From contig MEDJ01000019.1 of NCBI GenBank assembly GCA_001724025.1, positions 94,359 to 158,358 of the forward strand: 64,000 nucleotides of DNA, read 5' to 3'. Source of the stretch: Acidobacteria bacterium SCN 69-37 (lineage in GTDB: Bacteria > Acidobacteriota > Vicinamibacteria > Vicinamibacterales > SCN-69-37). Every line of letters begins with the position of its first letter. Position 1 is the stretch's first letter. Below are positions 1 to 26,209 of the stretch, piece by piece. The translations under genes were made by a program, and so were the position numbers. The notes beneath the pieces were generated by a model, which did not search any database, was not told the DNA's origin, and saw only the letters and a program-made list of their open reading frames with translations.

Positions 1-65
1 ATCATCCCGGTGATCGGCCTTGGCACGCGACGGAAAACGGTCACGAAGGTCATGGCTTCCTCCGA

Positions 66-1181
66 TCAGTGCGCGGCGGCCGGCGCGGGGAACCAGTGCC
101 GTGTTCGATTGCATACCGAACAGACCGACAACATCACCGGCACTTCGATGAGCACGCCGACCACGGTGGCGAGCGCCGCCCCGGACTCCGGTCCGAAGAG
201 CGCAATCGCCGTGGCCACGGCGAGCTCGAAGAAATTGCTGGCGCCAATGAGTGCGCCTGGCGCCGCGACGGCGTACTCGACCTTGAACAGGCGCATCAAT
301 CCGTACGTCAACGAGGAGTTGAAATAGACCTGGATCAGGATGGGCACCGCGATCAGTGCCACGTGGAGCGTCTTGGTCGTAATGTTCTCGGCCTGGAACG
401 CGAAGATCAGCACCAGCGTGGCGAGCAGGGCCGCCATGCTGACAGGGGCGAACCGCGGCAGGAGGACATTCTCGAACCACGCGCGGCCCTTCGTCCGTAT
501 GAACCAGCGCCTGAGCAACATGCCGGCCGTGAGCGGGACGACGATGAAGACCAGCACCGAGTAGAGCAGCACCTGGAAGGGGACGTGGAGCGAGGAGGCT
601 CCGCTGACGAGGAACGTCACGATCGGCGCGAACAGCACCAGCATCAGCAGGTCGTTGACCGACACCTGGACCAGCGTGTAGGCGGGATCGCCGTCGGTCA
701 GATAGCTCCAGACGAACACCATCGCCGTGCAGGGGGCGGCGGCGAGAATGATGCTGCCGGCGATGTACTGGTCGGCATCGGCGGGCAGAATCCACGGGCT
801 GAACACGTAGCGGAAGAACAGCCAGGCGATCGCGGCCATCGAGAACGGCTTCACCAGCCAGTTCACGAACAGCGTGACGAACAGACCGCGCGGGCGACGC
901 CCGACGTTGCGAATCGAGCCGAAGTCGACCTTCATCATCATCGGCGTGATCATCAGCCAGATGAGGATCGCGATCGGCACGTTGATCTGACTGCCCGCGC
1001 CGAACTCCAGGCCTCGCAGCCCCTGCATCATCGCCGGTACGGTCAGGCCCAGCCCCACGCCGACGGCCATGCACAGGCCCACCCAGAGACTCAGGTACCG
1101 CTCAAAGACGTTCAGCCGCTTCGGCGACGACACACGAGTGGTCGGTGCGGAAGACGGAATCGATGTAACGGCGTGATTCAT
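66..1181 (-). CDS. acr3: ACR3-family arsenite efflux permease
   Basis: Multi-TM ORF resembling ACR3 permeases (GAGSQINVPIAILIWLMITPMM, AAAPCTAMVFVW). Start trimmed to ATG 1181, just after the arsA stop at 1190. Last gene of the arsR-D-A-acr3 string. Confidence 0.9.
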   Translation of the reverse strand: MNHAVTSIPSSAPTTRVSSPKRLNVFERYLSLWVGLCMAVGVGLGLTVPAMMQGLRGLEFGAGSQINVPIAILIWLMITPMMMKVDFGSIRNVGRRPRGLFVTLFVNWLVKPFSMAAIAWLFFRYVFSPWILPADADQYIAGSIILAAAPCTAMVFVWSYLTDGDPAYTLVQVSVNDLLMLVLFAPIVTFLVSGASSLHVPFQVLLYSVLVFIVVPLTAGMLLRRWFIRTKGRAWFENVLLPRFAPVSMAALLATLVLIFAFQAENITTKTLHVALIAVPILIQVYFNSSLTYGLMRLFKVEYAVAAPGALIGASNFFELAVATAIALFGPESGAALATVVGVLIEVPVMLSVCSVCNRTRHWFPAPAAAH

Positions 1182-1189
1182 CGCCCACC

Positions 1190-2929: not shown

Positions 2930-3306
2930 TAGCAGCAACCCGATCCGGGCGTACAACACTCTTCCGACAGGCGAATCCGCGGCTTGGTCGGCGAGGCGCT
3001 CGCGGCGAGCCCGGCTGCGCGCGCCAGCGCCTCCCGTCGTGGATACGCGCCGTGGCCGAGCTCCTCACCATTGACGAGCACGATCGGCAGACACGTCGTG
3101 CCCTCGCGCTGCATGAGATCCAGCACATGCGTGTTCGAGACGAATGGCTGCGGATCCTGGGAAAGGTTGTGCCGCACGACGGTCACGCCCTGAGCGGTCA
3201 GCCACTCGACATCGGCCGCGAACGCGGCAAGCAGCGGATCCACACTTGGACCACACACCCCGGTCGAGCAACACATGGGCGGGTCGAAGACATCGATATG
3301 CGTCAT
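2929..3306 (-). CDS. arsD: Arsenic metallochaperone / operon regulator ArsD
   Basis: N-terminus MTHIDVFDPPMCCSTGVCG carries the ArsD-type Cys triad. The C-terminus is Cys-rich. It lies directly upstream of arsA. Confidence 0.9.
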   Translation of the reverse strand: MTHIDVFDPPMCCSTGVCGPSVDPLLAAFAADVEWLTAQGVTVVRHNLSQDPQPFVSNTHVLDLMQREGTTCLPIVLVNGEELGHGAYPRREALARAAGLAASASPTKPRIRLSEECCTPGSGCC

Positions 3307-3319
3307 ATGAAACCCCTTC

Positions 3320-3697
3320 CTACACGGCCTCGAGGAGTGCCTTCAACCGCTTCAACGCCGACGGGACGATGCAGTAGCCGACGCGCGGACCGTTCTCGTT
3401 CGCTTGAACGAGCCCGGCGCCACGCAGGATGCGGAGATGCTCCGACACCGTTGACTGCGCCAGCGGCAATTCGTCCACGATGTGACTGCACATCCGGGCC
3501 TCTTTCTTGGCGAGCATCCGCAGGATCCTCACCCGCGTGGGATGGGCAATCGCCTTGGCAAACGCGGCGAGCTCGTCGTCGGCGGCTGGTCCATCGACCG
3601 GAACGGTCAGCAGCTCCACGGTTTGCCCCTCGGGTGCGCAGCAGACCGGCTCGTCGGACTCGCAAGCCGGAGTGTTGGGAATGGTCTTGGTAGTCAT
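3320..3697 (-). CDS. arsR: ArsR/SmtB-family metalloregulator
   Basis: Winged-HTH signature AHPTRVRILRML...STVSEHLRILRGAGLV. N-terminal CC pair (EPVCCAPEG). First gene of the ars operon. Confidence 0.85.
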   Translation of the reverse strand: MTTKTIPNTPACESDEPVCCAPEGQTVELLTVPVDGPAADDELAAFAKAIAHPTRVRILRMLAKKEARMCSHIVDELPLAQSTVSEHLRILRGAGLVQANENGPRVGYCIVPSALKRLKALLEAV

Positions 3698-3718
3698 CGT
3701 TAATCGTCGATTAACGAT
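3696..3718. promoter_or_regulatory. Perfect 11-1-11 palindrome overlapping the arsR start codon (candidate ArsR operator)
   Basis: ATCGTTAATCG-T-CGATTAACGAT read directly from the sequence. The arsR ATG (3697-3695, minus strand) lies inside the left arm. Confidence 0.5.
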
Positions 3719-3785
3719 ATCACTGCCAAAGACCTGGCGTCAACTCCTGTAAGTCATTGATTGGATGAGGCGTTAGGGGCGGCCT

Positions 3786-4439
3786 TCAGCGGTGCTCGTT
3801 GGTAGGGGCAGTCCGGGGAGAGGGCTCGCTTCCTGCTCGCTCAGAAGGCTCCTGACAAGTGCCGCACTGATCCGTGCGGGCTTCGTAGCTGATGATGCCT
3901 CCACGTCGGTCGAGTGCGATTCGGCAACACTCGTCCAACGCCGTGCGCAGGTGCAATCGAGCACGCTGGACGCGGCTCTTCATCCCGGACACCGAGAGCC
4001 CAAACCTTTCGGCGGCTTCGACCTGGGTGACGCCCTCGAACTCGACGAGACGCAAAGCTTCCTGGTCAGCGGACCCCAGCGTGCTGATGAGAGGCTTCAA
4101 GCAGGCGCTGAGTTCCTGTAATGCGCTGCCGTCGGCATCGTCATCCGGCGCGTCCGCGATCTGCGGAGCGAAATCGACCGGCGCCCCCGCCGGCACCTCT
4201 CGCGTATGCGACGGTGCGCGGTAGTAGTCGGCGATGACTCGGCGGGTCGTCTGATAGACCCACGCGTGGAGCCGGTCCGAATCGCGAAGCGTCGGCAATG
4301 CGCGGTGCACCTGAAGGAACACCCGCTGCACGATGTCATCGACGTCGGCCGGCTGCCGAACGCGCCGGCCGACGAACCCACGAATATTGGCGCGCAGCTC
4401 AGTCCACACGCCTTCCGTGCTCAGCGACACGTCGGGCAT
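3786..4439 (-). CDS. ECF (sigma-70 family) sigma factor with Cys-rich C-terminal tail (SigZ-like)
   Basis: Region 2 (DDIVQRVFLQVHRALPTL...WVYQTTRRVIADYYR) and region 4 (ALRLVEFEGVTQVEAAERFGLSVSGMKSRVQRAR). The tail is ECCRIALD...QCGTCQ. It starts 7 nt after the arsM stop. Confidence 0.8.
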   Translation of the reverse strand: MPDVSLSTEGVWTELRANIRGFVGRRVRQPADVDDIVQRVFLQVHRALPTLRDSDRLHAWVYQTTRRVIADYYRAPSHTREVPAGAPVDFAPQIADAPDDDADGSALQELSACLKPLISTLGSADQEALRLVEFEGVTQVEAAERFGLSVSGMKSRVQRARLHLRTALDECCRIALDRRGGIISYEARTDQCGTCQEPSERAGSEPSPRTAPTNEHR

Positions 4440-4445
4440 TCTACG

Positions 4446-5932: not shown

Positions 5933-6223
5933 GTGAAGTTCTTCGATTGGGATGATGCGAAGAACGCGAAGCTCAGGGCGGAGCGCGGCATCGGGTTTGA
6001 GGAGATCGTCTTCCACATCGAGCGTGGCGACGCGCTCGACATCCTGGAACACCCGAATCCCGACCGTTACGCCGGCCAGCGCATCTTCGTCGTCCGGCGC
6101 GAGGACTACGTGTACCTCGTGCCGTTCGTCGAGGATGAGCAGACGGTCTTCCTAAAGACGATAATCCCGAGCCGGAAGGCGACGAAGCAGTACCTCGGTG
6201 AGGAGTCCGACGATGAAGCTTGA
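5933..6223 (+). CDS. brnT: BrnT-family (DUF497) ribonuclease toxin
   Basis: FFDWDDAKNAKLRAERGIGFEE...VFLKTIIPSRKATKQY matches the BrnT pattern. GTG start. It overlaps the downstream antitoxin gene. Confidence 0.8.
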   Translation: MKFFDWDDAKNAKLRAERGIGFEEIVFHIERGDALDILEHPNPDRYAGQRIFVVRREDYVYLVPFVEDEQTVFLKTIIPSRKATKQYLGEESDDEA

Positions 6224-6479
6224 TGCCGACGAGAAGGAGTTGCTTGGCTCCGTCGAGCGTGGCGAATGGAAGTCCGCCAAGGGCGGCAAGCGCGAGCGCG
6301 CCCGGTACTCCCGTTACGCGAAGGCCACGTTCCGCAAGGATCGACGGCTGAACATCCGGTTGTCGAGCAAGGATCTGGAGGCGATCCAGAAGCGGGCGCT
6401 GGCAGAGGGCTTGCCGTATCAGACGTTGATCTCGAGCCTGCTACACAAGTACGCGTCGGGGCGCCTAAAGGAAGTCTGA
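6213..6479 (+). CDS. brnA: BrnA-type (CopG/RHH-like) antitoxin
   Basis: C-terminal RLNIRLSSKDLEAIQKRALAEGLPYQTLISSLLHKYASGRL. Start ATG 6213 overlaps the brnT 3' end. Confidence 0.7.
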   Translation: MKLDADEKELLGSVERGEWKSAKGGKRERARYSRYAKATFRKDRRLNIRLSSKDLEAIQKRALAEGLPYQTLISSLLHKYASGRLKEV

Positions 6480-6500: not shown

Positions 6501-8342
6501 TCAAGTGCCTCGTGCTTTCTCTTGGTCAACAGTGCCGGGCTCGTCGCGGCCTGTTCCACCATAGTCACCGTTTCGAAAGCGTTGCATCGCCGCTTCGGCT
6601 ATCACATCGAATCGCCCCTTAATAATGGCGCGGACGGCCTCAGTATTGAAGCGGTCGCCATTCGGCGCCATGAACTCCTCCAGCGAGATCATCCTCGACG
6701 GATGTGCCCGGTGGAACGACTTCAGGATCGAGTCCAGGCGCTCGCCTGTCACCTGAATCACAGCAGATAACCGATCGAGCGCGTCGGCTGTCATGACTGT
6801 GAGCGGCCACACTTTCGGATGGCCTACCTTCAGTCGTGGTTCCATGGAACGCAGGAAACGATCGGACAATACACGCATGACGGGACCGGCGTTGATGATC
6901 GGGTCCTGAACAACCAACACGGGATATATGTCCTCCACTGCGCGAAGGCCTCGAATGGAACTCTTCGCGGTTTGATTGAACCATACGGCCTCGATTCCGC
7001 TGCGGAGCTGATAGAGTCCTCCGTGCTTGACGTGCCCGAATTTCTGCGTCAGCCCCCTGAAGAACGCGGCTGGCTCCCCAGAGTACTTGTCGCCAGACTT
7101 GATGAATGTCCCCTTGCATTCGATCACGATGGCCGCGCCATCTCGAACAGCGACGGCATCCCAGAGCTCTTCGTTTGAAGATTCGTCGAGCGGGTTGGGG
7201 ACAAAGAACCAGTTTCTGGCCCGAAATATTTTGTCGAGACGGTCGAGGCAATAGGCCTCGAACGCGGACCCCCATGTACTGGTGAATTGCTTGCGACGCG
7301 CCATTGTGTCGAGCGCATTCATCACGCTCCAGAAGGCGTGCGCGCCGAGTCGCTCTACCAAGAGCGCGACGTCAATGCATAGCGCGTCTCCGTTGGGCAT
7401 GATCCAGAGCGGCGAGGCGCGGAACGGAGTCAAGTCGAACAGCGTCGTGCGGGAAAAACTCTCGATCTTGAGCCTGTCAGGCAGTTCGGCGAACGGCGTA
7501 CTAAGCGAGGCTAGCGCCTGAAGCAGCACTTCCTTCGATATCGTCTCGTGTGGCTGATCAGGGTTTAGATAGCCGCGTGACCGATCCGCCATCAGTTGCT
7601 TGAAGGTCACGGCAGACCAGAATGAGAACAGAAGGAAGCTGAGATCCAGCCAAGCTTCCATGCTGAACCCTGTTGTGAACAATGCGATGCGTTCGAGTCG
7701 TTCGAGATCCGCAGGATCCGCTGCGGCGGCCGGGAGCCTGCGGGTGAATAGGTCATGGACGCGAGGCCACGAAATCTCGATCGCTGGGGGATTTTCGGTC
7801 TCGTGCATTGGCCCCATCTGCGTTGCCAACCAGAGCGCAGTGGCTTTCTTGGACGGCGGCTCCTCGACACGGAACAGCCCATTCGTGAGAAACAACAAGT
7901 CGCCGATCACGTCGAAGTCGTCCCGCGTTTGAAGACGATTCCCGCCATCCGCGCGGCCCCAGGTGGCAACCAAACGAGTGACAAACAGGAGCTGCGTCCG
8001 ATGCAACAACGGTCGATTCAGCAGTGATGCGGCACCGAACTGTGCCTGAAGAGTGCGAAGCAACTTCTCGCTGATGACCTCGCGAATCAACCAGGTCTGC
8101 ACATCGCGAACCGGCTCGACGTTGTTGGTGAATTCCGTCTCGATCGTCGCGGACGACAGGAGCAGATTCAGAAACCCGAGAAAGTGCAGAGCCTCGTCGC
8201 GGTTCAACGTCGAGGCAAGCCCCGATAGCTCGGCGTAGTCGACGCTGCGACCGGGGAAGACCTCCTCCGGGGAAATGAAGGTTCTGATGATCTGCGGCAC
8301 GAAGTCACCTTGTTTCGTTCGACGATAGCCCGCACACTTCAA
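6501..8342 (-). CDS. Hypothetical 613-aa protein with PD-(D/E)xK-like motif in the C-terminal half
   Basis: Long ORF with no competing ORF. The motif string is GSAFEAY...ELWDAVAVRDGAAIVIECKG (E ... D ... E-x-K). No family recognised. It lies 95 nt downstream of the DUF6527 gene on the same strand. Confidence 0.55.
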   Translation of the reverse strand: MKCAGYRRTKQGDFVPQIIRTFISPEEVFPGRSVDYAELSGLASTLNRDEALHFLGFLNLLLSSATIETEFTNNVEPVRDVQTWLIREVISEKLLRTLQAQFGAASLLNRPLLHRTQLLFVTRLVATWGRADGGNRLQTRDDFDVIGDLLFLTNGLFRVEEPPSKKATALWLATQMGPMHETENPPAIEISWPRVHDLFTRRLPAAAADPADLERLERIALFTTGFSMEAWLDLSFLLFSFWSAVTFKQLMADRSRGYLNPDQPHETISKEVLLQALASLSTPFAELPDRLKIESFSRTTLFDLTPFRASPLWIMPNGDALCIDVALLVERLGAHAFWSVMNALDTMARRKQFTSTWGSAFEAYCLDRLDKIFRARNWFFVPNPLDESSNEELWDAVAVRDGAAIVIECKGTFIKSGDKYSGEPAAFFRGLTQKFGHVKHGGLYQLRSGIEAVWFNQTAKSSIRGLRAVEDIYPVLVVQDPIINAGPVMRVLSDRFLRSMEPRLKVGHPKVWPLTVMTADALDRLSAVIQVTGERLDSILKSFHRAHPSRMISLEEFMAPNGDRFNTEAVRAIIKGRFDVIAEAAMQRFRNGDYGGTGRDEPGTVDQEKARGT

Positions 8343-8437: not shown

Positions 8438-8833
8438 CTAACCGGCAAAAAGTCGACTCAGCCACTTCCAGAGTCGCCGCCACCTGCCGACGGAGTAGGG
8501 TTTGGCGTAGTAGGAGCGACGCCGCTCCTGCTCCTGTGCGCGACCGGCGGCGATCTGTTCGGATGACCATGCCTCGCCCCAAACGACTTCGCCATTGCGG
8601 AACCAATAGTGCGAACGACAGCCTTGCTGCCAGTTGCCAACGGAAGGCCACAGGCTGGGTCCCTGGGGATCCTCTTCAACCGACCATTCCGTGGGTCCAA
8701 GTGGAGTGCGGATCTTTGCACCGCATCCGCACGCGCACAGATGCGCCGCCGTAAGGAACTCTTCGGAGACGTACAGAATGCCCGGCTGCAGCTCCTTGGG
8801 CATGTAGTGGACCCGCTGCAGGACGAACTTCAC
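8438..8833 (-). CDS. DUF6527-like Cys-rich (putative Zn-binding) protein
   Basis: CACGCGAKIRTPLGPTEW...PSVGNWQQGCRSHYWF matches my recollection of the DUF6527 pattern. The GTG start overlaps the E1 stop (GTGA). Confidence 0.7.
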   Translation of the reverse strand: MKFVLQRVHYMPKELQPGILYVSEEFLTAAHLCACGCGAKIRTPLGPTEWSVEEDPQGPSLWPSVGNWQQGCRSHYWFRNGEVVWGEAWSSEQIAAGRAQEQERRRSYYAKPYSVGRWRRLWKWLSRLFAG

Positions 8834-10017
8834 GGCAATTCCGATTCACTGCTGATTTTCATATCGCCGATGCCAAACAACAGATTGTAGAGGGGCGTTT
8901 CCTCGAAGTAGAAGCCGCGCAGCTGCTTGAACCTGATGACCGCAAGGCAGGCGTTGAGTGCATTCAGTTCAGCAATCTGAATGTTCGCCCGATAGACGTC
9001 GTCCGGCCGGTCGGCGAGATCGACCAACTGCTTGTCCCGAACGATCTGCGCATTGGCGGCGGAGAAATACGTAACGCGCACCATGCCATTCAGAGCGCCA
9101 CGTTTTCGGTTGAGGCCCATGCCGACATCGATGAAAGGGATCTTCTTCGCGATGAGAGCGTCGATGATCCCCGCGCGAGCAGAACCCTTGTCGACGCAGA
9201 CGAATGCGAACGTGACTCCGTCGAGGTCATCGGCTGATTGCGGATCGATGAATTTGGGCGCTGTTGACAGACCGTGACGAAAATTCTCATAGCGAGCCTG
9301 GTAAACGACACTCTTGTGCTTGCCGAACTCTGCTTCCTCGACGCGACCGGGAGAGCGAAATGCGTTATGCACGTAGTAGAAATCCAGATCGAACGAGCGA
9401 ATCTCGCGCACCGGAGTCTTGACGATGAAGTCCAGCACGTAGGCACCCGTGCCGCCGAGACCAATCACGGCGATGATGTCGTCCTTGAACCTCGCGACGA
9501 GATCCGTGATTTCCGCTCTGCTCGTCAGCGTGTCATGGAACCTAAAAATGCTATCGGGCGCCACCTGTTCAACCGAGCGAAACGTGTAGGGGTTGGCGCC
9601 GTGCCTTTCAATGGCTGGACCGGAAATAATGGCGACGTAACTCTCGATCTTGTCGAAGAAATCAGCAAATGCTCCGGTCGCCTTCGGTTTGTTGGAGAAG
9701 GACCGCTGAACGACCACGTCGTTACAGGCGTCGCTTAGAGTGACCTGACAAGTACCGCCGCCGAGATTCGGGATCGGATTCCCATCGAGACCGTGCGGCA
9801 CGGATCCGGCGAAGAAGACCTGATGGTCATCCTGCCTGACTCGATCCAGATCGAGGAACACGAGTTTCGCAACCAGAGCGCCAGTCTGAAGTGCGCCGGC
9901 CGCGTCGAGATACGGAATGTCGCGCACGACGAGATGGTTCGTGTCGAACGCGACCGCGTGGCCCTTTTCGACGAGCCGGCGGAGGTCGTCGTTACGACTG
10001 ACCAGTCTCTGAAACAT
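8830..10017 (-). CDS. ThiF/E1-like adenylyltransferase with ~170-aa N-terminal (possibly E2-like) extension
   Basis: Rossmann nucleotide loop IAVIGLGGTGAYVLDF. The N-terminal extension contains HQVFFAGSVPHGLDGNPIPNLGGGTCQ. It is translationally coupled to both neighbours. Confidence 0.8.
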   Translation of the reverse strand: MFQRLVSRNDDLRRLVEKGHAVAFDTNHLVVRDIPYLDAAGALQTGALVAKLVFLDLDRVRQDDHQVFFAGSVPHGLDGNPIPNLGGGTCQVTLSDACNDVVVQRSFSNKPKATGAFADFFDKIESYVAIISGPAIERHGANPYTFRSVEQVAPDSIFRFHDTLTSRAEITDLVARFKDDIIAVIGLGGTGAYVLDFIVKTPVREIRSFDLDFYYVHNAFRSPGRVEEAEFGKHKSVVYQARYENFRHGLSTAPKFIDPQSADDLDGVTFAFVCVDKGSARAGIIDALIAKKIPFIDVGMGLNRKRGALNGMVRVTYFSAANAQIVRDKQLVDLADRPDDVYRANIQIAELNALNACLAVIRFKQLRGFYFEETPLYNLLFGIGDMKISSESELP

Positions 10018-10243
10018 TGAAGATCATCCCGTCCTTCACCTTGACCGACCCGCCGGGCGAGAGGATGCCCTCCGGCTTGTTGCCGTGACCCCGGGTGTAC
10101 GTCACGGCGTACGTGATCTCCGGGTGCTGAGCGTAGTCAGGGACCTCCAGAGTGACGACCTCCGCGTAAGTGATCTCCTCCTTCGGCCACTCGTGCGGCG
10201 TGCCTTCCACAATGATCGTGACTGTCTTCTTGTCGGCTGCCAT
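9992..10243 (-). CDS. Multiubiquitin-type single beta-grasp (Ubl) protein
   Basis: KKTVTIIVEGTPHEW...VTYTRGHGNKPEGILSPGGSVKVKDGMIFNVSETGQS. Start set at ATG 10243, which follows AAGGGAGAA. The upstream ATG at 10270 would lie inside the operator. Confidence 0.7.
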   Translation of the reverse strand: MAADKKTVTIIVEGTPHEWPKEEITYAEVVTLEVPDYAQHPEITYAVTYTRGHGNKPEGILSPGGSVKVKDGMIFNVSETGQS

Positions 10244-10268
10244 GGGCTGTTCTCCCTTGAGATCCACC

Positions 10269-10315
10269 ATCGCATTTTTGCGATGTCTTTGTCAACGCAA
10301 TTTTGCGATATTCAG
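10269..10315 (-). promoter_or_regulatory. Promoter/operator element, copy A (twin of 26210-26255)
   Basis: Minus strand reads CTGAATATCGCAAAATTGCG-TTGACA-AAGAC-ATCGCAAAAATGCGAT. It contains two palindromes (CGCAA-AA-TTGCG and ATCGCA-AAAA-TGCGAT) around a TTGACA -35 box. It ends 26 nt before the Ubl start codon. Confidence 0.55.
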
Positions 10316-10405: not shown

Positions 10406-11539
10406 TTAGTTAAAGGCGGTGAGCACAGCACGCTCGGCTTCGGCTGGCGGGATTCTCTCCTGCTCGAGCATCCATGGCCCTGCCACGACCGCGTTCAAAG
10501 CCTCTCGCTCGACATCGGTCAGATGCGAGTGGCGGGCGGATGCGTCTCGTTGACCCGGTAACGCAAGATGCCTCCATCGACACCAGGCGGTGTGGTCCAT
10601 CAGCAGGCTTCGGACTTGCGGAAAGCTTGATCGGAGCCCCGAGAGAATGCCGTACCCGGCTTCATCGCAATCACCCCAATAGACGATCTGAGTCGACGCC
10701 ATCCAACGGCACGCCGGGAGTATCGATGCCGCCTTGCCTGACCCAAAGATGGCTAACGTGCGAGGGATCTCGGGCAGGCACAGAAACACGTCCCGATTCT
10801 CGACTACGAGTACACGCTCCGGGACCCATGAGATATTCGCAAAACTTGGCGCCGGCACGGAGCAATCATCGACTGGCCAGCCGACGCGTTCCCGAAGCCG
10901 CTGATCCAAGAAGCGAAAGCGAACCGGCGCCGGATCTGCCAAAAGGTGAAAGCGCTCGGCGAACGTCGCGCCCTCTACGTTGACGCGATCGCCCAGCACC
11001 ACATCGAGCAGCTCGCGAAGAATCCCGGCGTGTTCTTCAACGAACTTCGTCCCAGCTGGCAGCGGTATCTGGCGCGCGAAACACCGTGGCGTTGGATTGG
11101 CATCAAAGTATGCGCAGACAGCAACCAGAGCTGGCCACTCTTCAAGGTAGTCAACGATACGGTGCGCTCTCGCGCGCACCCATGGCTCCAGCGCCGGACA
11201 CGACTCCCGCGCTCTACGAACCGCGTCGTGGAACGCTTCAAACTCGCGCGAGCGGCCCAAAGCCGCCGCCATGTCATCGGCTGACCCAAATGTGATTCGC
11301 ATCGGCCAGCGTTGACGTCCCCACTTGCGCGTTTGAATTTCCTGCCATTCGATTTGCCATTCATGATGGGTCGCCGCCAACGCCTCGATGTCGCGCTTCA
11401 ATTCCGCAAAGTCGGCGGTGGTCCGGGGACGGCCGAACGGAATCTGCAGAGGAAACAGACTCTCGCCAGCTGCCTCCGCGCGCAGGACAGCTGGCCACCT
11501 GCTTAGCGCTCCTTCGAGAATATCTTCTGGCTTTAGCAT
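10406..11539 (-). CDS. jetD: Wadjet JetD (DUF3322 + Toprim/DUF2220 nuclease subunit)
   Basis: Toprim-like VLVVENRDVF and YWGDCDEAGYGIL. Last gene of the jetABCD order. Confidence 0.85.
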   Translation of the reverse strand: MLKPEDILEGALSRWPAVLRAEAAGESLFPLQIPFGRPRTTADFAELKRDIEALAATHHEWQIEWQEIQTRKWGRQRWPMRITFGSADDMAAALGRSREFEAFHDAVRRARESCPALEPWVRARAHRIVDYLEEWPALVAVCAYFDANPTPRCFARQIPLPAGTKFVEEHAGILRELLDVVLGDRVNVEGATFAERFHLLADPAPVRFRFLDQRLRERVGWPVDDCSVPAPSFANISWVPERVLVVENRDVFLCLPEIPRTLAIFGSGKAASILPACRWMASTQIVYWGDCDEAGYGILSGLRSSFPQVRSLLMDHTAWCRWRHLALPGQRDASARHSHLTDVEREALNAVVAGPWMLEQERIPPAEAERAVLTAFN

Positions 11540-11556
11540 GCAGACCTTGCGGGCCC

Positions 11557-14500
11557 TTAGGCAGGAGACGCTGGCGATGGCGGGGACTGCAACGCTTCTG
11601 ACTGCAGGCCGTTGGCTTCAGGTCCAGCCTCAACTTGCTCCCGAGTCAGCGCAATCAGCCGCGAACTGTTCCCTGACGGGTTCGAAGCCAAGTGAATCGT
11701 GCGAACAAACGGCACGGCGAGCTTCGCTTTCGCGTCGAATGGTCCGACGATGAGCAGCTGGAATCCAAGCTGAGAGAACAGCTGCATCGCGCGAGTGGAA
11801 TTCGATTCGTCCGTGCGCGAGAACGCTTCATCAATAACCACGAGGCGGAAGTTGGGAGCGTCCTGAGCAGCCGTGGACAGACCGTACTGCGCGGACAAAG
11901 CCGATGCGAGAATCGTGAAGGCGAGCTTCGCCTTTTGTCCTCCAGATTTGCCCGTCGTCGCGGCGTAGTAGTTGACCTCGACGTCGTCCGACCTACGCAA
12001 CTCTCGGACGCCAGCGGCAAACCATGTACGAACGTCCGTCACGCGTTGCGTCCCCTCAGGATCGCGTTGGAACTGTTCCAGGAGCAGGCGGACACGCTCG
12101 AAGATTCGCAGGCGCTCATCCGGTGCCGGCGCGATGCCATGTTCAAAACAGTCGCGCAAAGACCGGCGAAACTCAGCGACCTCATGTCCAGGGCGGCTCA
12201 CCAACCGCAGTTGGACGTATGTGTCGTCGGCGTAATCGATACCGCGTAGAGCCTCATTGATCTCCTCTATTCGGCCCTCGATCGCCTCCTGATGCTCCTC
12301 AAGACGGCGATTGAGCATCAACAGGTCACCTACGAGGTTTTCGTTCAGGTAGTGTTCGAACCGTTCCCTATGACGCGGTAGGTCTTCCTCCTCGATGCGA
12401 TGAAGTACGGCGGCGAAACTGTCGGCGTAGGCGCGGCCCACTTCAAGCGTTTGGCGGAAGTCAGGAAACTGACCTAGGAATTCGCTCATGCCCGCGACCA
12501 TCTTCTCGACGGCTTCGTTCACTCGACGCTGTTCATTGCTGATGCGCCCCTGCAGGCTCTGATGGGCGGAATGTGTGAGCTGATCGGCGTTCTCGAGTGT
12601 GAGGGGAGGCAGGCCTGCGGTGATATCGGCAAAGGCCGCCTCCAACCCGTCGTGATCGAAGCCGCTCAAGTCAGCAAGTTGCTGCTCACGGTCGGAGGTG
12701 CGACGTTGACAAGCTTCCAGCCGGTCGCGCACACGTCCGAGTTCCCCGTCGCGTTCACGCAGGTCATCCTCCCCGGCCTGGATGGCAGTATCAATATTCC
12801 GCAACCGTTCCTGGAGAGCTCGAAGTTCTTTCGAGCTCCGCTCTAAGAGGTCTTGCTCGGTCCGTAACCGCATGACCTCGTGGAGCCAGTGCTCAGGATC
12901 TATCTCAATAAAATCACGGATCGCCAACAGCTCGCGGGCGGCGCTCGCACGTTCCCGCGCTGCGCCCGCGCTCCGACCTGCCGCTGTGGCGGCGTTGGCT
13001 TCGGCTAGGGCTCGTTCTTCCGCTTCGCGAATCTGAAGGCGGAGGGCGGCGATCTTGCGGTCCGTCGACCAGCCGAGAATTCTGGCACTGTAATCGTCGA
13101 CGCGCCTGCCATCATCCTTGACATGCCGAGTGCCTTCACGAATTAGGCCCTCGCGCGTGAGACCGCGGTCCACGCCTTCGAGTTCCACAATTGACGCGCA
13201 ACATCGATGATTAAATCGGCGCACTAGCTCATTCGCCACCCATAGATGCAGCGGATGGTCTATCCGAAATTCAAGCCGCCCCGGCACGCGATCGTTCGAC
13301 AAGCTCGGTGGTCCGACATGTTGATCCGGCACACGATGAAAGGTGAGACGCAGGCCGAGCAGCGTGGAGTTCACGAACTGGGCCGCCGGCCTGTACAAAT
13401 GTTCAGGGACCAAGAGGGACAACCCAAAGCCGCGAAGTAGGCGTTCAATCGCGCCGGTCCAATCCTCGTACGTGTTTCGAACCTCTATCAGCTCACCCGC
13501 GAAAGGCATCGCCTCAGTGCCCACCCCGACTACCTGCGCGATGCGGGCACGAACTGCCAGAAACTCTCGAGGAATATTCACGCGATGGCGTTCGACACTT
13601 TCGAGTTCGGCGGCCTTTTCAACGCGTACCTCAAGTGCCAATTCCTGAGCGTGTCGTCTGGCGGCACGCAGCTCGTCCGCCTCGCTCGCCGCGACGCTTT
13701 CCACGCGCTCGCGTTCCTCCCATCCAACGCGAGCACCGACGAAAGCTGCGGCGTCAGCCAATGAAGAAATCGCGGCAAGCAGCTGCGCCGCAGGTTCGAC
13801 ACGCGTGCGGCGATGCTGCGCGTTCAGTCGCGCTTGTTCGGCGTGGTGCAGTTCGCGCTCGATGGCTTGGAGGCGCGGCCCAACGTCAGTCTGTGCGATA
13901 GCGGCATTGACATCGTCGCGTTCACGTCGGTGGTCGGCTAGACGCGAAGCGACCATTGCGCGCGCGGCCTCTGACGATGCGACCACGGTCGCGAGTTCAA
14001 TGGCATGGGCTCGAAGCAGTGCCAAGTGGCGGCTCGCGAAGTAGGGGATTGCAAGCTCCTGCAGCTGTCTCCAGACCTCGATCCGCTGCTCACCGTCGGA
14101 GATGCGACGACCGCGTTCGGCTACGGGACCGAGTAGGGCAATCTGACGTTCAGCGCGCTCGATCGCTGCCCAGCAATCGAGGAGCGTCCTGTAATGGGGC
14201 TGGACGGTATCGCGGATAAACGAGAATGTGTCAGCGGCCGGCAACATGAACTGCCGAACGAATGCGTCGATGTCGCTGACCTCCTTCATGCCGATCGCCC
14301 GGTTGAACACTTCAAGCGCCTTGTCGCCTGGAATATGCAGCAGACTGCGCATCCTTTCCGCGTAGGCGGCGAAGCTGTCCTCGACCTGCCAACCATTACG
14401 GCGGGCCGCCCGTCGGATTTCACTCGTGTTGGTATGTCCTTCGATCAGGTCGCTCAAACTTCGGCGACCTTGCGCCACCGCGTAAACCTCGCGAACCTGC

Positions 14501-14940
14501 TCTTCGTGCTCCCAAAGGACCTGTGCAAGCGTCGCTGAAAGCTGACGCTGACCGTCCGTGAACACCGCCGCGATTGCGCTGAGGGCCCCGGCCTCGCGAA
14601 GATGCTGCGTCGTAGGAGCAGTTGAATCGACGGTGCTGGAGCTCGCCCAAGCGCCTCGAACATACGAACGCCGCGTGCGATCGCGCCCGCCTGGGCGACG
14701 ACCGTCGCCGGACGCATCGTTGTAGTTCAGGATCCGGGGTGGTACGAGCAACGTTCGTAACGCATCGATGGCGGTGGACTTTCCTGAGCCATTGTCGCCG
14801 ACGAGCAAAGCCCAGCCACCACGCGGCTCAAGCGTCTGCGCTTGGCCATGGAAGGTCCCCCAATTCCACAGTTCCAGCCGCTCCAGTCGAAAGCCGGACT
14901 CCATGTGGGGACGAGTGTCCTCAAACTCCTCGTTCGACAT
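11557..14940 (-). CDS. jetC: Wadjet JetC (SMC/MukB-like ATPase)
   Basis: 1127 aa. N-terminal FRLERLELWNWGTFHG...LLVGDNGSGKST, a long coiled-coil middle, and C-terminal KLAFTILASAL...LVVIDEAF (signature motif and Walker B). An alternative start at ATG 14904 would remove the 20-nt overlap with jetB. Confidence 0.85.
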   Translation of the reverse strand: MSNEEFEDTRPHMESGFRLERLELWNWGTFHGQAQTLEPRGGWALLVGDNGSGKSTAIDALRTLLVPPRILNYNDASGDGRRPGGRDRTRRSYVRGAWASSSTVDSTAPTTQHLREAGALSAIAAVFTDGQRQLSATLAQVLWEHEEQVREVYAVAQGRRSLSDLIEGHTNTSEIRRAARRNGWQVEDSFAAYAERMRSLLHIPGDKALEVFNRAIGMKEVSDIDAFVRQFMLPAADTFSFIRDTVQPHYRTLLDCWAAIERAERQIALLGPVAERGRRISDGEQRIEVWRQLQELAIPYFASRHLALLRAHAIELATVVASSEAARAMVASRLADHRRERDDVNAAIAQTDVGPRLQAIERELHHAEQARLNAQHRRTRVEPAAQLLAAISSLADAAAFVGARVGWEERERVESVAASEADELRAARRHAQELALEVRVEKAAELESVERHRVNIPREFLAVRARIAQVVGVGTEAMPFAGELIEVRNTYEDWTGAIERLLRGFGLSLLVPEHLYRPAAQFVNSTLLGLRLTFHRVPDQHVGPPSLSNDRVPGRLEFRIDHPLHLWVANELVRRFNHRCCASIVELEGVDRGLTREGLIREGTRHVKDDGRRVDDYSARILGWSTDRKIAALRLQIREAEERALAEANAATAAGRSAGAARERASAARELLAIRDFIEIDPEHWLHEVMRLRTEQDLLERSSKELRALQERLRNIDTAIQAGEDDLRERDGELGRVRDRLEACQRRTSDREQQLADLSGFDHDGLEAAFADITAGLPPLTLENADQLTHSAHQSLQGRISNEQRRVNEAVEKMVAGMSEFLGQFPDFRQTLEVGRAYADSFAAVLHRIEEEDLPRHRERFEHYLNENLVGDLLMLNRRLEEHQEAIEGRIEEINEALRGIDYADDTYVQLRLVSRPGHEVAEFRRSLRDCFEHGIAPAPDERLRIFERVRLLLEQFQRDPEGTQRVTDVRTWFAAGVRELRRSDDVEVNYYAATTGKSGGQKAKLAFTILASALSAQYGLSTAAQDAPNFRLVVIDEAFSRTDESNSTRAMQLFSQLGFQLLIVGPFDAKAKLAVPFVRTIHLASNPSGNSSRLIALTREQVEAGPEANGLQSEALQSPPSPASPA

Positions 14941-15499
14941 GATTCGTGAGCCGGCTTCTCACTTCCTCCAGTTCCGCGGGGCCGAAACGAGCTTTCAGGA
15001 TTCGCATTACCTCGAAGGTCTCTGCCTCCGGGGGTCCAAAGGCTCTCAGAAACGCCAACTCCTCGAGGCGGCCGATGGCAGTATCGATTCTCCTGATATC
15101 TCGAATCTGGTTATTCGTTTCACGCACGAACTGGCTGACCAGCTCACGCAGTTGCTGCCGCGTCAGAACCAGCCTAGTTGAGTCTCCGGCGGACGCATCG
15201 AAACGGGCCAGTTCTTCGCGCAAGCAGACCAGGAGCAGAGTAGCCGTGTATCCGAGTGACTGTCGGCGGCCGATTCGCGGCACCGACTCCCCACCCTCGA
15301 CTTCGATTTGGCGCAAGAATGCATAGCCCTCAGCTTCATCGACTACGACCTCCTGCCCAATCTGCCGAAAGTAGTGCGCGATTGCGTCACGCTCTCCTCG
15401 CAGCGCCTCCCACAGCGACTCATCTTCTCGGTAGATTGGTTCGAGTAGTAGTCGGGCCAAGACAAACGAGCGCGACGCGAACAGTGAGTGTGTATCCAT
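14921..15499 (-). CDS. jetB: Wadjet JetB (DUF4194, kleisin-associated)
   Basis: 192 aa, located between jetA and jetC. Sequence LLLEPIYREDESLWEALRGERDAIAHYFRQIG...YTATLLLVCLRE is typical of DUF4194. Confidence 0.8.
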   Translation of the reverse strand: MDTHSLFASRSFVLARLLLEPIYREDESLWEALRGERDAIAHYFRQIGQEVVVDEAEGYAFLRQIEVEGGESVPRIGRRQSLGYTATLLLVCLREELARFDASAGDSTRLVLTRQQLRELVSQFVRETNNQIRDIRRIDTAIGRLEELAFLRAFGPPEAETFEVMRILKARFGPAELEEVRSRLTNHVERGV

Positions 15500-15507
15500 G
15501 AGTAGCC

Positions 15508-16968
15508 CTACTGCGCACGTGTAAACAGGACTTCAGGCACCCGCCACAGCTCGTCCAAACCGGCTCCAGTCACGATCTGCACCTCGGCAAACTGGTCACC
15601 CGGGACGTAGTGTTGCGCATCCTGCATGGCGACGACGAGATAGCCCACAACTTCCAGGATGCCTTCGCGCGGTGGGAATCGTTGGAGAACCTGCGACAGC
15701 AGAACGGACTCTGTGGCTACGAGGCATGAACGCACTTGCTCGCGAAGCCTGGTCAGATTCAAATCCACCAACGCACGAAAGCGGTTCACCATTTCCCAAT
15801 CCAGTCCCTGAGCGGCAAATGTGAGGTCGTCTGTAACCTGACCCGCTGCGTCGGGCTGCCAGAACGGTCGACTGAACGTGGTAAACGCTTCCGGCGGCCC
15901 AGCAAGATTGAAGAAATCATCCTCAGGCGGCGGCGAAGCGCGACAGACGAGCGCTAACCGCTGCGTCTCTCGTATTAACTCACGAAGACGCCTATCCTCG
16001 CCTGTGGCTGCACTCTCAAGCGCTCGTCGCAACGTCGCCGCCATTCGCTCGTTCGAGCGCACGACCCGCTCTCCTTCGACCAGCAGTCGGCTTGAGAGTC
16101 GGTCGAGGAGCCGATTGGCTCGTAACCCTTCGTCGATCGCGTCCATCCGGTACACTTGACGCGTCAACTCTCGCCATCGTTGTTGCCGTTCGGGCGACGA
16201 CAGCAAGTTCCAGAACGCGTAGAAGCTTTGACCTTGAGACGAATCCTTCAGCGCGGCGTGAGTGTCAAGAAGCTGACCGACAATGCGGCCCTTTGTGGCC
16301 CCAGGCTTGGTCTGAGCCTCCGCTAGTGCCCGCGCGACGTCCTTGAAGTTCTCCTCAAGCTGCCGAAAGTCGCCGGCGAGTCCGCGTGCCAGATCAAGGG
16401 CGTTCGCGAATCGTTCAGTCAACTGAACGGCCGTATAGGCCTCGGCAGTGTGAGTCTGTTCGATGGAGTCGATCTGCGCCTGTAGGGCAGCCTGCTGCGC
16501 GCGTAAAGCTGCCACGCGTCGGCTTGCATCGGGCGTCGAGAACAAGACGATCTCTTCGAGTTGACGGAAGATCAGCTCCAGTCGAGATTCGGCACCGACA
16601 AACGGCCGCGCCTGTAAGTCCTCTAACCACTGCATCGCGCGCTCTGCGGCCGTGGTGAGCTCGAAGACAGGTTCCTCTGCTTCATTGCTATATAGCTTCT
16701 TGAGGAGCAGTTGCTCGTTGCCGCACCAGGCGGCCAGGTATTCGGCTGCGGTCTGAGCGTACGCACCTGGCCTTTGAGCACGAGCCTCGTCGAGAAAATT
16801 GTCCAAGCGAGCGCGGAGGTGCGATTCCGGGACGGCTATTGCGTGATGCTCTTTGAAGGCTCGGTGGAGGAAGGTTAGCGTGAGCGCAGCATTCGGACTC
16901 CGCAGCAGCCGGACCGCGGCATGGTCCATCAGTCTTTGCGTCTCGATAAAATCCCACGCTGTGTTCAT
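15508..16968 (-). CDS. jetA: Wadjet JetA (DUF3375, kleisin-like)
   Basis: 486 aa. N-terminal AAVRLLRSPNAALTLTFLHRAFKE... fits the DUF3375 pattern. It lies at the head of the jetABCD order. Confidence 0.85.
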   Translation of the reverse strand: MNTAWDFIETQRLMDHAAVRLLRSPNAALTLTFLHRAFKEHHAIAVPESHLRARLDNFLDEARAQRPGAYAQTAAEYLAAWCGNEQLLLKKLYSNEAEEPVFELTTAAERAMQWLEDLQARPFVGAESRLELIFRQLEEIVLFSTPDASRRVAALRAQQAALQAQIDSIEQTHTAEAYTAVQLTERFANALDLARGLAGDFRQLEENFKDVARALAEAQTKPGATKGRIVGQLLDTHAALKDSSQGQSFYAFWNLLSSPERQQRWRELTRQVYRMDAIDEGLRANRLLDRLSSRLLVEGERVVRSNERMAATLRRALESAATGEDRRLRELIRETQRLALVCRASPPPEDDFFNLAGPPEAFTTFSRPFWQPDAAGQVTDDLTFAAQGLDWEMVNRFRALVDLNLTRLREQVRSCLVATESVLLSQVLQRFPPREGILEVVGYLVVAMQDAQHYVPGDQFAEVQIVTGAGLDELWRVPEVLFTRAQ

Positions 16969-16986
16969 AGAGCCACGTTGAAACAG

Positions 16987-19900
16987 TTAGCCAACTCGCG
17001 CGACCTGCCATCGCGATTGCCCCAGACCCTTCTCGACTTCTATGCAGCCAGGCAAGCGTTCGGTCAGGTCACGGATATGCGTAATGATGCCGACCATCCT
17101 TCCGCCGCTCCTGAGCGATTCGATCGCGTCCGTGACGATTTCAAGCGCTTCAACGTCCAACGTGCCGAACCCTTCGTCGATGAAGAGGCTGTCGATTTGA
17201 ACGGCACCGGCCGTCCGCAGAATTTCTTCACTCAATTGCAGCGCCAGCGACAACGATGCCAAGAAGGTCTCACCTCCACTAAGGGTTTCGGCGCGTCGAC
17301 GCTCACCGCCGTTGTCGTGATCGATCGCGTAGAAGGCGCCGTCATCCCATTGCAGGGTGTAGCGGTTCGTCCATTCCTTCATCCGTACGGACGCACCGTC
17401 GACAAGGCCGCGGAAGGCCTCTTCGAGTAGATATCGCTGGAAGCCGTCATTCTTCAGGTCACGCGCCAACTGCTCCGAGAGCGCAGAACGACCCTCGAGC
17501 GCGGCCTTCTCCTTGCGGAGCGCGACCGCACGCTCGACCTGAACAACCAGCCGCTCCACGTCTTGGCGAGAGCGTGTAAGCGTCTCCAGCGTCGCGTGGT
17601 GTGACTGCGCTGCACGCTGCGCTTGCTGTCCTGCCTCGCGGTGGTCCTGCTCCGTGACATACCGTCCCGCGAGCGCGTTCTCCAATTCGAGCACCCGGAC
17701 CTCGACCTGGTGACGTTCCGTTTCGTAGCCTCGGATCGACGCATCGAGCCGTTGTTGGGCCTCAGCCGGCAGAACTGCAGCACGTGTCACAGTCGGATCC
17801 GCGAATCCGCTGTCAACAAGGGCCTTGGAGGCCTCCGCATTGGCGCGATCGGCCTCCGCTTGCCGCTCCGTCATTCTTTGTTCCGCGCCACGTTCGGTTG
17901 CAATCGCCCGCTCCAACGACCGCTTGGCCGCTTCCAGCGCTTCCTGAGCCTTGCGCTCGGACGTCTCAAGGTTGGCCACTTGTTTGACCAGTTGTTCCCG
18001 TTCGCCGGCAGGATCGGAGCTCTTCGTGACCCCCACTATTCGCGATGTGATCTGGGATCCCTCCTCCTCAAGTTGACTCAATCGGGAACGTAACTCCTCG
18101 GTGCGCGCGAGGAGGTGTTGAACAGCGGTGGCAGCTTGATCCTGCCGATGCCTGGCCTGTTGCCGCGCCAGATCCGCCCGGTTGATGCGCTCGCCAGCCG
18201 CCTCGAATTGCTGCTTCAACGCTGCACAACTGTCGCCCTCAGTCGAAATCGCTTCGAACACCTCGGCCGAGAGGATCACCGCGCGTTGAGAGGCTGCGAC
18301 AACGCCAGCCACCTTCTTGGAAGCCTTCGCGATCCCCTTCTCGATTTCCTGCAGGTCAGCCGTGCGCTCCTCCGCCACTTCACGGCGCTCCTTGGCCTGG
18401 GATACCGCGCCGGCCGCAGTCTCTCGGGATTGCTCGAGCGCACGATTCGCTTTCGATTCTGCGCGTTTCGCCTGTTCTACTGCATCTTCGCGGTCCTCGA
18501 GCTCGGGCGCCCGAAGTCGCCGCGGCAGCCGCTCGATAACGTGTTCACACACGGGACAAGGCTCACCTTGCTCCAGCGTCGGGCGAAGAGCCGCGGCATG
18601 ATTCGCGTTGCGCGCTTGTTGAAGTGCAGCTTCGGCCTTGATGACTTGCTCGTGCGCGCGATCGAATGCCACCTTGTGTTTCTCGACAGACGCGGCGGCG
18701 TCCTTCACGGCGAGTTCCGCCTCGGTCGCTTTGTTCGCTGCGACTGTTGCTTGTCGTTTCGCAGCCGTCAGCCGGTGATGGAACTCACGGCCTCGGATGG
18801 CGTCCGCAACAACCTCTTGAAGCGCACGGTACCTGTCGGCGTCATAACCGATAGTCTTTCTTGCCGTCCTCGCGTCAGCAAGTTCACGCTCGGCGGCGGT
18901 GCTTGTCGATTCGGCCTTTCGCTGCTCCGCCACCGCTGCTTTGTGGTCCTTCGTAACGGTGGCGATCGATGAGTTCGTCGACTGGGCTTCGTTAGCAACC
19001 TTCTTCTGCCGCTCGATTACCCCGCGGAGCTCATCGAGAGCTTGAATTCGCTTGCGAAGTCCGGCAATCGCTGTGAGTTCACGTTGCGCGTGTTCATGGG
19101 AGGTCGATTGGCGCCCTAAATCGGACTGAGCGGACTCTGTTTGGGTGTGTGCTTGGCGAAGCTCTCGCTGAGCGCCCGCGACCCGAGCGTTCGCATCGTC
19201 CAGCGTTTCAAGACGCGGAATCACCAATGCGGCCCGGCGCGCTCTATCGAGCCGGTCGCGATCTGCGGAGACTTGCTCGCGCTGCGAATCGAGTTGCTTG
19301 AGCCGAGCGCGGTTTGAAGCGAGTTCGGTCGACTGAACGAAGCGCGCTTGAATCTCCTGCAGCTGCTGTGCAGCCGTTTCCGAGGCGGTCTTCGCGAGCG
19401 CTTCTTGGCCGCTTGCCTCGTCGAACTTGCCGCGTGCCGCTTCGAGATTCTCGGAGGTCGAATCGGCATAGTCCTGATCGAGGCGTTCACGCATGAGCCG
19501 CAGTTGTTGTTGCTGCTGACGCGACTCCTGCTCGGCTTGCAGCCGCATTCGCTCATACACATCGAGCTTCAGCAGCTCGCGGAGAATCTTGCCGCGTTCG
19601 CCAGGATCACTGTGCAAGAACCTGTCGAATTCACCCTGAGGTAGAAGGACCGTTTGGATGAACGTCTCGTACTGCAAGCCAGTGAGGGCGGCGATCTGTT
19701 CGTCCGCGTCGCGAACCTTGTCGGCAAGCAGCCGTGTGTTGCCGTTCGTGATCTCTTCGAGAATCACGGAGGCCGCCTTTTTACGTCGCAGCGCACGGCC
19801 GACGCGGAATTGCCGATCACCGACGACGAATTCCAGCCGGACCGCCATGCGGTCTCGCCCTAGCGACACGGCGTCAGAGATACCTTGCTTCCCCAGGCGA

Positions 19901-20064: not shown

Positions 20065-20066
20065 CG

Positions 20067-21224: not shown

Positions 21225-21226
21225 GG

Positions 21227-26186: not shown

Positions 26187-26209
26187 TCGGGCATTCCTCG
26201 CTGCAAACT

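Follow-up and report, generated by a model that had tools for sequence, protein, structure and literature searches.

A repeated promoter-operator element in front of a Bub and a Wadjet operon of an acidobacterial contig and its putative XRE-type regulator

The two copies of the element

The window analysed here, a stretch of 64,000 nucleotides (64 kb) of contig MEDJ01000019.1 from Acidobacteria bacterium SCN 69-37, stems from a bioreactor metagenome and carries two defence operons on its minus strand, a Type II Bub operon and a gene train which ends with a type I Wadjet system. Each of them is preceded by a copy of the same ~46-nt element. A first-pass annotation had noticed this repetition at two loci 16 kb apart and had suggested that a shared repressor, most economically the double helix-turn-helix (HTH) XRE protein encoded at 25155-25820, joins both operons into one regulon.

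The minus strand, on which all neighbouring genes are encoded, carries copy A at 10266-10315 and copy B at 26207-26255. The two strings quoted by the annotation were found verbatim at 10269-10315 and 26210-26255 when the window was read directly. On the minus strand copy A reads TATCGCAAAATTGCGTTGACAAAGACATCGCAAAAATGCGATGGT and copy B, with the gap shown, TATCGCAAAATTGAGTTGAC-AACACATAGCAAAAATGCGATAGT. The copies are identical at 40 of 45 positions and differ by four substitutions and one indel over these 45 nt. Their flanks are unrelated and the similarity breaks off sharply on either side, which agrees with the earlier statement that this is no simple block duplication.

The repetition is real and not due to chance. 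A search of the 64 kb with a 20-mer from the element, allowing up to three mismatches, returned two places, namely copies A and B, at a shuffled expectation of 0.00. The 16-bp palindrome ATCGCAAAAWTGCGAT gave seven strand-wise matches in the window at up to three mismatches (0.71 expected), six of which, counted over both strands, belong to the two operators of copy A and the two of copy B. The seventh match at 59100 is a chance-level site, and a candidate third weak site at 26372-26387 (two mismatches) corresponds to the background rate of about one per 10 kb. The copy number of the element stays at two if a flank of 6 kb is added to the window (~70 kb).

Each copy has the layout of a sigma-70-type promoter, with TTGACA, a spacer of 17-18 nt and TGCGAT(A/G)GT in the orientation of the downstream gene. 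Two 16-bp palindromes of the form ATCGCA-N4-TGCGAT are embedded in it, O1 at the -35 box and O2 over the extended -10 region. The two palindromes and the TTGACA described before are thus parts of a promoter with two palindromic operators. O1 has the sequence ATCGCAAAATTG(C/A)GTT and shares its final two bases with the -35 hexamer. A short variable spacer separates TTGACA from O2, which reads AT(C/A)GCAAAAATGCGAT and whose right half provides the TG of the extended -10 as well as the first three bases of GAT(A/G)GT. Within each operator the centres of the half-sites are 10 bp apart, which is the usual geometry for an HTH dimer, and the distance from the start of O1 to the start of O2 is 24 bp in copy B and 25 bp in copy A. 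The positions are as follows:

26234-26249, minus strand: O1 of copy B, ATCGCAAAATTGAGTT
26230-26235, minus strand: -35 box of copy B, TTGACA
26210-26225, minus strand: O2 of copy B, ATAGCAAAAATGCGAT
ending at 26207, minus strand: extended -10 region of copy B, TGCGATAGT
10294-10309, minus strand: O1 of copy A, ATCGCAAAATTGCGTT
10290-10295, minus strand: -35 box of copy A, TTGACA
10269-10284, minus strand: O2 of copy A, ATCGCAAAAATGCGAT, a perfect palindrome
10266-10271, minus strand: -10 hexamer of copy A, GATGGT, with the TG at 10273-10274

The -10-like hexamer had been placed 17-18 nt behind TTGACA, and this holds for both copies. Copy B consists of TTGACA, 17 nt and TG-n-GATAGT, and the promoter scan calls it with 10 of 12 matches and a TG extension; copy A was read directly as TTGACA, 18 nt and TG-n-GATGGT. 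The operators of copy A correspond to the consensus and those of copy B carry one substitution each; the annotation had called the palindromes of copy A perfect and those of copy B slightly degenerate. Copy A is located 90 nt past the stop codon of jetD. From the end of its -10 hexamer to the ATG of bubA at 10243, which is preceded by the ribosome-binding site GGGAGAA, there are 22 nt, and in copy B 20 nt separate the -10 from the GTG at 26186. Measured from the ends of the quoted strings the distances are 25 nt and 23 nt, the annotation having given 24-26 nt.

The operons downstream of the two copies

Copy B heads a train of 12 genes on the minus strand with intergenic gaps of at most 18 nt. 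The annotation had spoken of a train from ImmA to Wadjet; it is one train indeed, but its first gene encodes a Gp49/HigB-like toxin and ImmA comes third. The following features were assigned:

25824-26186, minus strand: Gp49/HigB-like toxin of the RelE superfamily, first gene (Pfam PF05973, E = 1.1e-15)
25155-25820, minus strand: double-HTH XRE protein, the proposed operator-binding protein (Pfam HTH_3 twice; PADLOC capH, E = 1.5e-15)
24211-25137, minus strand: ImmA/IrrE/CapP-like Zn metallopeptidase, third gene (HETGH motif; PADLOC capP, E = 1.3e-15)
23945-24214, minus strand: DUF1883 protein of 89 aa, fourth gene of the module (Pfam PF08980, E = 2.5e-23)
16987-23927, minus strand: four coupled genes with gaps of at most 18 nt, encoding a 327-aa unknown protein and the HerA-, SbcD- and SbcC-like proteins
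21227-22951, minus strand: HerA-like ATPase
20067-21224, minus strand: SbcD-like nuclease
16987-20064, minus strand: SbcC/Rad50/LmuB-like ATPase
10406-16968, minus strand: type I Wadjet system, jetABCD in this order (PADLOC profiles)
15508-16968, minus strand: jetA (JetA1, 1.9e-110)
14921-15499, minus strand: jetB (JetB1, 1.6e-48)
11557-14940, minus strand: jetC (JetC1, 6.5e-278)
10406-11539, minus strand: jetD (JetD1, 1.6e-98)

The first genes of this train have the order of a HigBA-type module, with a RelE-superfamily toxin first, an HTH antitoxin second (its gene starts 3 nt past the Gp49 gene) and palindromic operators in their own promoter. The match of the XRE protein to the capH profile spans its HTH only (residues 40-116). 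A second HTH of XRE type occupies its C-terminal half (Pfam HTH_3/HTH_19, residues 107-171), where no CapH C-terminal domain is recognisable, and the solved structures closest to its N-terminal half are Mycobacterium tuberculosis HigA3 (6LTY, 1.8e-5) and HigA (6AF3). The toxin itself gave no match to the PDB. In the metallopeptidase the capP match covers residues 84-214. The DUF1883 gene overlaps the stop codon of the ImmA gene. DUF1883 follows ImmA in 16 related loci (among them L002, L003, L004, L007, L008, L108, L112, L117, L120, L124, L134, L137 and L140) and in every related locus with room for it, and therefore the regulatory module comprises four genes. The regulator is more than XRE with ImmA, since the HigB-like toxin and DUF1883 belong to the module as well.

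The Wadjet genes are translationally coupled (gaps of at most 18 nt) to the four genes upstream of them, which makes 10406-23927 of the minus strand one super-operon. The same fusion of the four genes with Wadjet was seen in the loci L127, L153 and L148. Relatives of the SbcC-like protein were not found in species-representative genomes.

The operon downstream of copy A was assigned to Type II Bub according to the definition in PMC11601596, as it encodes the ubiquitin-like (Ubl) protein BubA, the E2-E1 fusion BubBD and the DUF6527 protein BubE without a JAB peptidase. The features are:

8438-10243, minus strand: Type II Bub operon (Pfam matches)
9992-10243, minus strand: BubA, Multi_ubiq Ubl protein (Multi_ubiq, 2.3e-18)
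8830-10017, minus strand: BubBD, E2-E1 fusion (DUF6791 and ThiF; NCBIfam PRK06153, E = 9e-190)
8438-8833, minus strand: BubE, DUF6527 protease (DUF6527, 4.5e-24)
6501-8300, minus strand: 599-aa protein past BubE (NCBIfam GapS1, E = 1.1e-7, far below the cut-off)

We found 80 syntenic relatives of the Bub operon, and the 599-aa protein is absent from these 80 other loci. Its gene is probably the last one of the transcription unit starting at copy A and may be an extra defence gene on that transcript.

Distribution and conservation of the element

The element and its putative regulator were looked for in two directions, with the XRE protein alone against genomes and with a DNA pattern over both operators and the -35 box. 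The protein search revealed 11 loci with 61-84% identity from Acidobacteriota, Planctomycetota, Methylomirabilota and Gemmatimonadota. Eight of these contain the two-site promoter just upstream of the Gp49 gene, and a ninth (L011) has a divergent version of it. The remaining two are L005, which begins inside Gp49, and L001, in which the motif is missing from the stretch read. In the reverse direction all 14 pattern matches in genomes lie directly upstream of Gp49-XRE, as do 48 of the 54 matches in metagenomes with respect to Gp49 or XRE, while viral contigs gave no match. The search of related genomes that the annotation had called for thus yielded numerous further copies, and in 62 of these 68 independent occurrences the operator is accompanied by an XRE homologue (60-97% identity). 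This is in favour of the double-HTH protein as the candidate binder, for which binding and repression are inferred.

All external occurrences (n = 68) are found at promoter positions and are co-oriented with the genes that follow. This bears on the idea, named in part by the annotation among the results that would speak against a regulon, that the element is a dispersed repeat of the repetitive extragenic palindromic (REP) or miniature inverted-repeat transposable element (MITE) type, or else a transcription terminator present in two intergenic regions. The terminator scan did flag the O2 palindrome together with a T-rich run on the plus strand (10268-10285), but the hairpin is antisense to all local genes, its RNA fold is not significant and the score probably results from the operator sequence itself. 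With two copies in ~70 kb and the co-oriented promoter positions elsewhere, we attach a negligible probability to this explanation.

Over 58 unique instances conservation is sharply limited to the element, and its -35 and -10 hexamers are conserved. Those positions of O1 which had been left free by the search pattern contain 1.1-1.8 bits, the free half-site base of O2 1.5 bits and its central four bases 0.8-1.3 bits. The flanks mostly stay at 0-0.3 bits; the two bases next to the element reach up to 1.0 and the downstream flank up to 0.5. The recognition helix of the XRE protein, TTQSVISRLED, is invariant in 57 unique homologues (60-97% identity), and the ATCGCA half-sites are invariant too. 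One variant helix, TTQSAVSRLED of L140, is paired with variant operators; this is a single, anecdotal case.

Homologues of about 100 aa which consist of the first HTH only also sit behind the same operator, and HTH1 is therefore the presumed operator reader. ImmA was found exclusively with double-HTH XRE proteins (31 of 39 loci, in comparison to 0 of 12 single-HTH loci). The sequence comparisons show that a horizontally mobile module of a Gp49/HigB-like toxin and an XRE/HigA-like repressor has the element as its native, presumably autoregulated promoter. Since the single-HTH forms without ImmA use the same operator, and ImmA and DUF1883 occur only together with the double HTH, the ancestral unit is a HigBA-like pair of toxin and antitoxin that controls its own promoter, to which one clade added the C-terminal HTH, the ImmA/CapP-like peptidase and DUF1883. 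Among the relatives the Gp49 gene is placed between operator and XRE, except in two metagenome contigs (L145 and L160), in which the operator immediately precedes XRE and Gp49 is undetectable; these may represent toxin-less derivatives of the module.

The XRE protein is by far the best candidate for binding the element. An alternative is that the repressor is a complex of Gp49 and XRE, acting by conditional cooperativity, or another protein of the module such as DUF1883, and that ImmA plays no role in induction. The similarity of the N-terminal half of XRE to HigA antitoxins and the operator in front of modules without ImmA point in this direction, and HigBA complexes are known to autoregulate (PMC11980606). 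On the other hand L145 and L160 keep the operator in front of XRE without a detectable toxin, and the ImmA-less modules with the same operator are without DUF1883 as well. We regard this alternative as unlikely; it would also be a refinement of the model with XRE as repressor and not its replacement.

The six metagenome matches which are not located before Gp49 are all found 88-90 nt past a jetD homologue, just as copy A. In L110, L128 and L148, whose JetA and JetD proteins are 97% and 87% identical to those of the window, the element precedes genes for a protein with metallo-beta-lactamase fold and a membrane protein. L127 and L153 (JetD 68% identical) share their 45-nt element with L146, in which it precedes a Multi_ubiq/Prok-E2_E/Prok-JAB/ThiF cassette. 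In L127 (~12150-13333) and L153 (10648-11736) a transposase of the IS630 family lies between the post-JetD promoter and the Ubl-E2-JAB-E1 cargo; L146, with the uninterrupted arrangement, and L127 stem from one metagenome. In L166 an isolated site behind JetD lacks TTGACA and is considered a chance match.

An alignment of the three lineages shows that the 3' end of jetD is conserved and that the intergenic stretch of ~90 nt has diverged, with the 45-nt element remaining as a conserved island. The half-sites are intact, the spacer between -35 and O2 is variable, and the leaders and cargo genes downstream are unrelated. Conservation of the element within diverged DNA points to purifying selection that acts on the operators behind jetD, which argues against a recent neutral duplication. 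As to its origin, copy A is 94% identical over 53 nt to the Gp49 promoter of the close relative L116, including 11 extra upstream bases, and this exceeds its match to copy B. The site after jetD therefore derives from a Gp49-type promoter. L118 (Gp49 96%, XRE 97%) and L148 share the soil metagenome Ga0306920 and are probably the two ends of a sibling element with both copies.

The same data could be explained if copy A was copied from a Gp49 promoter and now works as a constitutive or otherwise controlled promoter in which the palindromes are evolutionary baggage; a shared regulon would then not exist. The close match to L116 fits such a fairly recent capture, and none of the 80 other Bub loci needs this operator. 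We nevertheless hold this to be improbable, as the half-sites stayed intact in three lineages (JetD 68-87% identical) while their surroundings diverged, and the operators of copy A are consensus ones. Judged from this pattern of conservation, copy A is a conserved, selected and regulated cargo socket, at which sibling elements carry other cargo.

Divergent to copy B and upstream of it the window encodes type IV secretion system and conjugation genes (TrbC, VirB3, VirB4, CagX, TrbI, TrbL and VirB8, 27600-36500), and a tRNA-Ala gene (50403-50478) is located exactly where the GC content jumps from ~62% to ~70%. Because of the secretion genes and the tRNA at the GC jump, the defence region looks like the cargo of an integrative conjugative element. 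An attachment site formed by a direct repeat of the tRNA-Ala 3' end was sought in the window and nothing longer than 12 nt was found, and no operator was found near the secretion genes.

A further reading takes the element primarily for a recombination junction at which cassettes are exchanged, with its promoter activity in second place. The post-JetD site precedes three unrelated cargos (Type II Bub, Ubl-E2-JAB-E1 and the metallo-beta-lactamase-fold protein), the homology ends within a few bases of the -10, and the window lies on a presumed conjugative element. However, ordinary autoregulated promoters of toxin-antitoxin modules, with invariant cargo at the junction, make up 62 of the 68 occurrences. 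Binding of RNA polymerase and of HTH dimers fully explains the anatomy, no recombinase is linked to the element, and a homology of ~45 bp is short for RecA-dependent exchange. A primary role in recombination is thus quite improbable.

A different solution is represented by a deltaproteobacterial metagenome-assembled genome (L039, 1-4000), in which a Type II Bub operon directly follows the genes of Gp49, XRE (55%) and ImmA (46%), so that the regulator module itself is placed before Bub. No ATCGCA operator lies between ImmA and BubA in this locus, and the module's own promoter is off the contig. The gap between ImmA and BubA contains a perfect 16-bp palindrome at ~2103-2118, ATGAATTCGAATTCAT, which is unlike the ATCGCA operator; the recognition helix of the XRE protein is identical.

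Proposed regulation and related systems

We consider it likely that both copies are XRE-controlled promoters which form one regulon, and the reading of the first-pass annotation is supported in every part that can be tested in silico. According to this model dimers of XRE would bind O1 and O2 through their N-terminal HTH and block RNA polymerase, the dimer at O1 covering the -35 box and the dimer at O2 the spacer and the extended -10. With copy B switched off, the 12-gene operon with toxin, XRE, ImmA, DUF1883, the HerA/SbcCD-like set and type I Wadjet would be silent; with copy A switched off, the same would apply to the Type II Bub operon and the 599-aa protein. By analogy with CapH/CapP, DdrO/IrrE and ImmR/ImmA, a signal of damage or infection would activate the ImmA peptidase, which would cleave XRE and thereby derepress both operons at the same time. 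This might also set the toxin free, and Gp49 may serve either as such a released effector or as a co-repressor. Since its operators are the consensus ones and those of copy B carry one substitution each, copy A as the promoter of the cargo is predicted to be more tightly repressed than copy B, the regulator's own promoter.

Several observations weigh against a common regulon under the control of XRE. The promoter scan gives no call for copy A, as its -10 hexamer GATGGT fits the consensus at three of six positions only. The centres of the two operators are 24-25 bp apart, and because this amounts to ~2.3 helical turns a cooperative binding on the same face of the DNA is not obvious. No significant terminator structure was detected between JetD and copy A (fold z-score -0.88), and therefore read-through from copy B and jetD into the Bub operon may contribute too. 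XRE is taken for the binder because of its co-occurrence with the operator, which Gp49 shares to the same extent, so that a co-repressor or, in principle, another factor is conceivable. For ImmA the Pfam score of Peptidase_M78 is 21.5 bits, just below the cut-off, and a comparison with solved structures returned no meaningful match even at E = 10, including no detectable similarity to solved CapP or IrrE. Both copies are found on one contig in this window only, as the sibling elements are split across contigs. Finally, no operator was found upstream of BubA in the 80 other Type II Bub loci, and the 16 loci with JetA relatives in reference genomes are all stand-alone jetABCD operons without module or operator. 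The arrangement with two promoters is therefore specific to this element family. One operator candidate among the Bub loci, at position 7400 of L072, turned out to be a chance match within the gene of a response regulator.

CapH and CapP hold adjacent immune operons repressed until DNA damage occurs (Lau et al. 2022, bioRxiv 10.1101/2022.04.27.489752), and 168 of 544 Bub operons adjoin CapH+CapP, which are also associated with Wadjet (Ye et al., PMC11601596). The module described here resembles them in that an XRE-type HTH repressor and an M78/ImmA-type Zn peptidase are encoded beside defence operons, with matches to the capH and capP profiles at ~1e-15. In contrast to CapH/CapP, the pair is part of a four-gene module with a HigB-like toxin first and DUF1883 last, and the regulators are the first genes of an operon on the same strand as their cargo and not divergent from it. 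The repressor has a second HTH in place of the oligomerisation domain of CapH and is nearer to HigA in its N-terminal half, and its peptidase partner is without detectable similarity to the solved CapP and IrrE structures. The site of CapH from Escherichia coli MS115-1 is a 22-bp region upstream of the -35, whereas here the palindromes lie inside the promoter, and the entire promoter-operator is present a second time in front of a separate operon 16 kb away. The module is thus not a clean member of the CapH/CapP family, although it would work like one.

HigA and HigBA autoregulate via palindromes in their own promoter (PMC11980606). With HigBA modules such as M. tuberculosis HigBA3 the module has in common the toxin in first position and its Gp49 family, an HTH similar to HigA3 and HigA, and palindromes overlapping its own promoter. 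It differs by the added peptidase and DUF1883, an antitoxin of doubled length, ~14 kb of defence genes on the same predicted transcript, and the re-use of the operator at a second promoter.

In DdrO/IrrE from Deinococcus and ImmR/ImmA from ICEBs1 an XRE repressor is inactivated by an M78 peptidase after DNA damage. The radiation-desiccation regulon of DdrO/IrrE also has one palindromic motif at several promoters, and ImmR/ImmA is carried on a conjugative element. Unlike in these systems, the two promoters here are on a mobile element and belong to anti-phage systems, and not to DNA repair or element transfer. The repressor of CapK/CapS (PMC13373217) binds palindromes in two promoters, its own and that of a Bub operon, but the proteins are from unrelated families (a kinase and a STAS-winged HTH protein), their two promoters are adjacent whereas here another defence operon lies in between, and their sites differ in half-site spacing whereas here the promoter is duplicated.

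A more far-reaching version of the model is tentative and in our estimate rather doubtful. The module would then combine a toxin-antitoxin system with a damage-sensing switch, in which a single ImmA-type cleavage derepresses the Wadjet super-operon, derepresses the Ubl-conjugation operon through the duplicated promoter and frees a HigB-like RNase toxin. In addition, the post-JetD promoter would serve as a plug-in socket for the repeated exchange of cargo (Bub, Ubl-E2-JAB-E1, metallo-beta-lactamase fold) between conjugative elements, with the cargo placed under one master switch. 

The published regulators we are aware of (CapW/BrxR, CapH/CapP and CapK/CapS) are described as controlling a single adjoining operon. 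In the window a single module with a mobile repressor seems to govern, by means of a duplicated promoter-operator, two systems of unrelated mechanism, Wadjet together with the HerA/SbcCD-like genes and Bub, which provides a natural system for asking whether Bub and Wadjet are co-induced.

Compared with the first-pass annotation, three aspects are added: a defined operator which is conserved across phyla, a regulator with features of both toxin-antitoxin and CapH/CapP systems, and a regulated socket with exchangeable cargo. ATCGCA-N4-TGCGAT is a precise and testable operator for a widespread, uncharacterised clade of XRE proteins, and through the module toxin-antitoxin systems of the HigBA type may be linked in evolution to immune regulators of the CapH/CapP type.

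Two further gene groups lie at the end of the window next to the Bub cassette. Just beyond the cassette a BrnT/BrnA toxin-antitoxin pair is encoded on the plus strand (5933-6479), and the region 1-4440 contains an extracytoplasmic function (ECF) sigma factor and an arsenic-resistance cluster (ArsR, ArsD, ArsA, Acr3 and ArsC).

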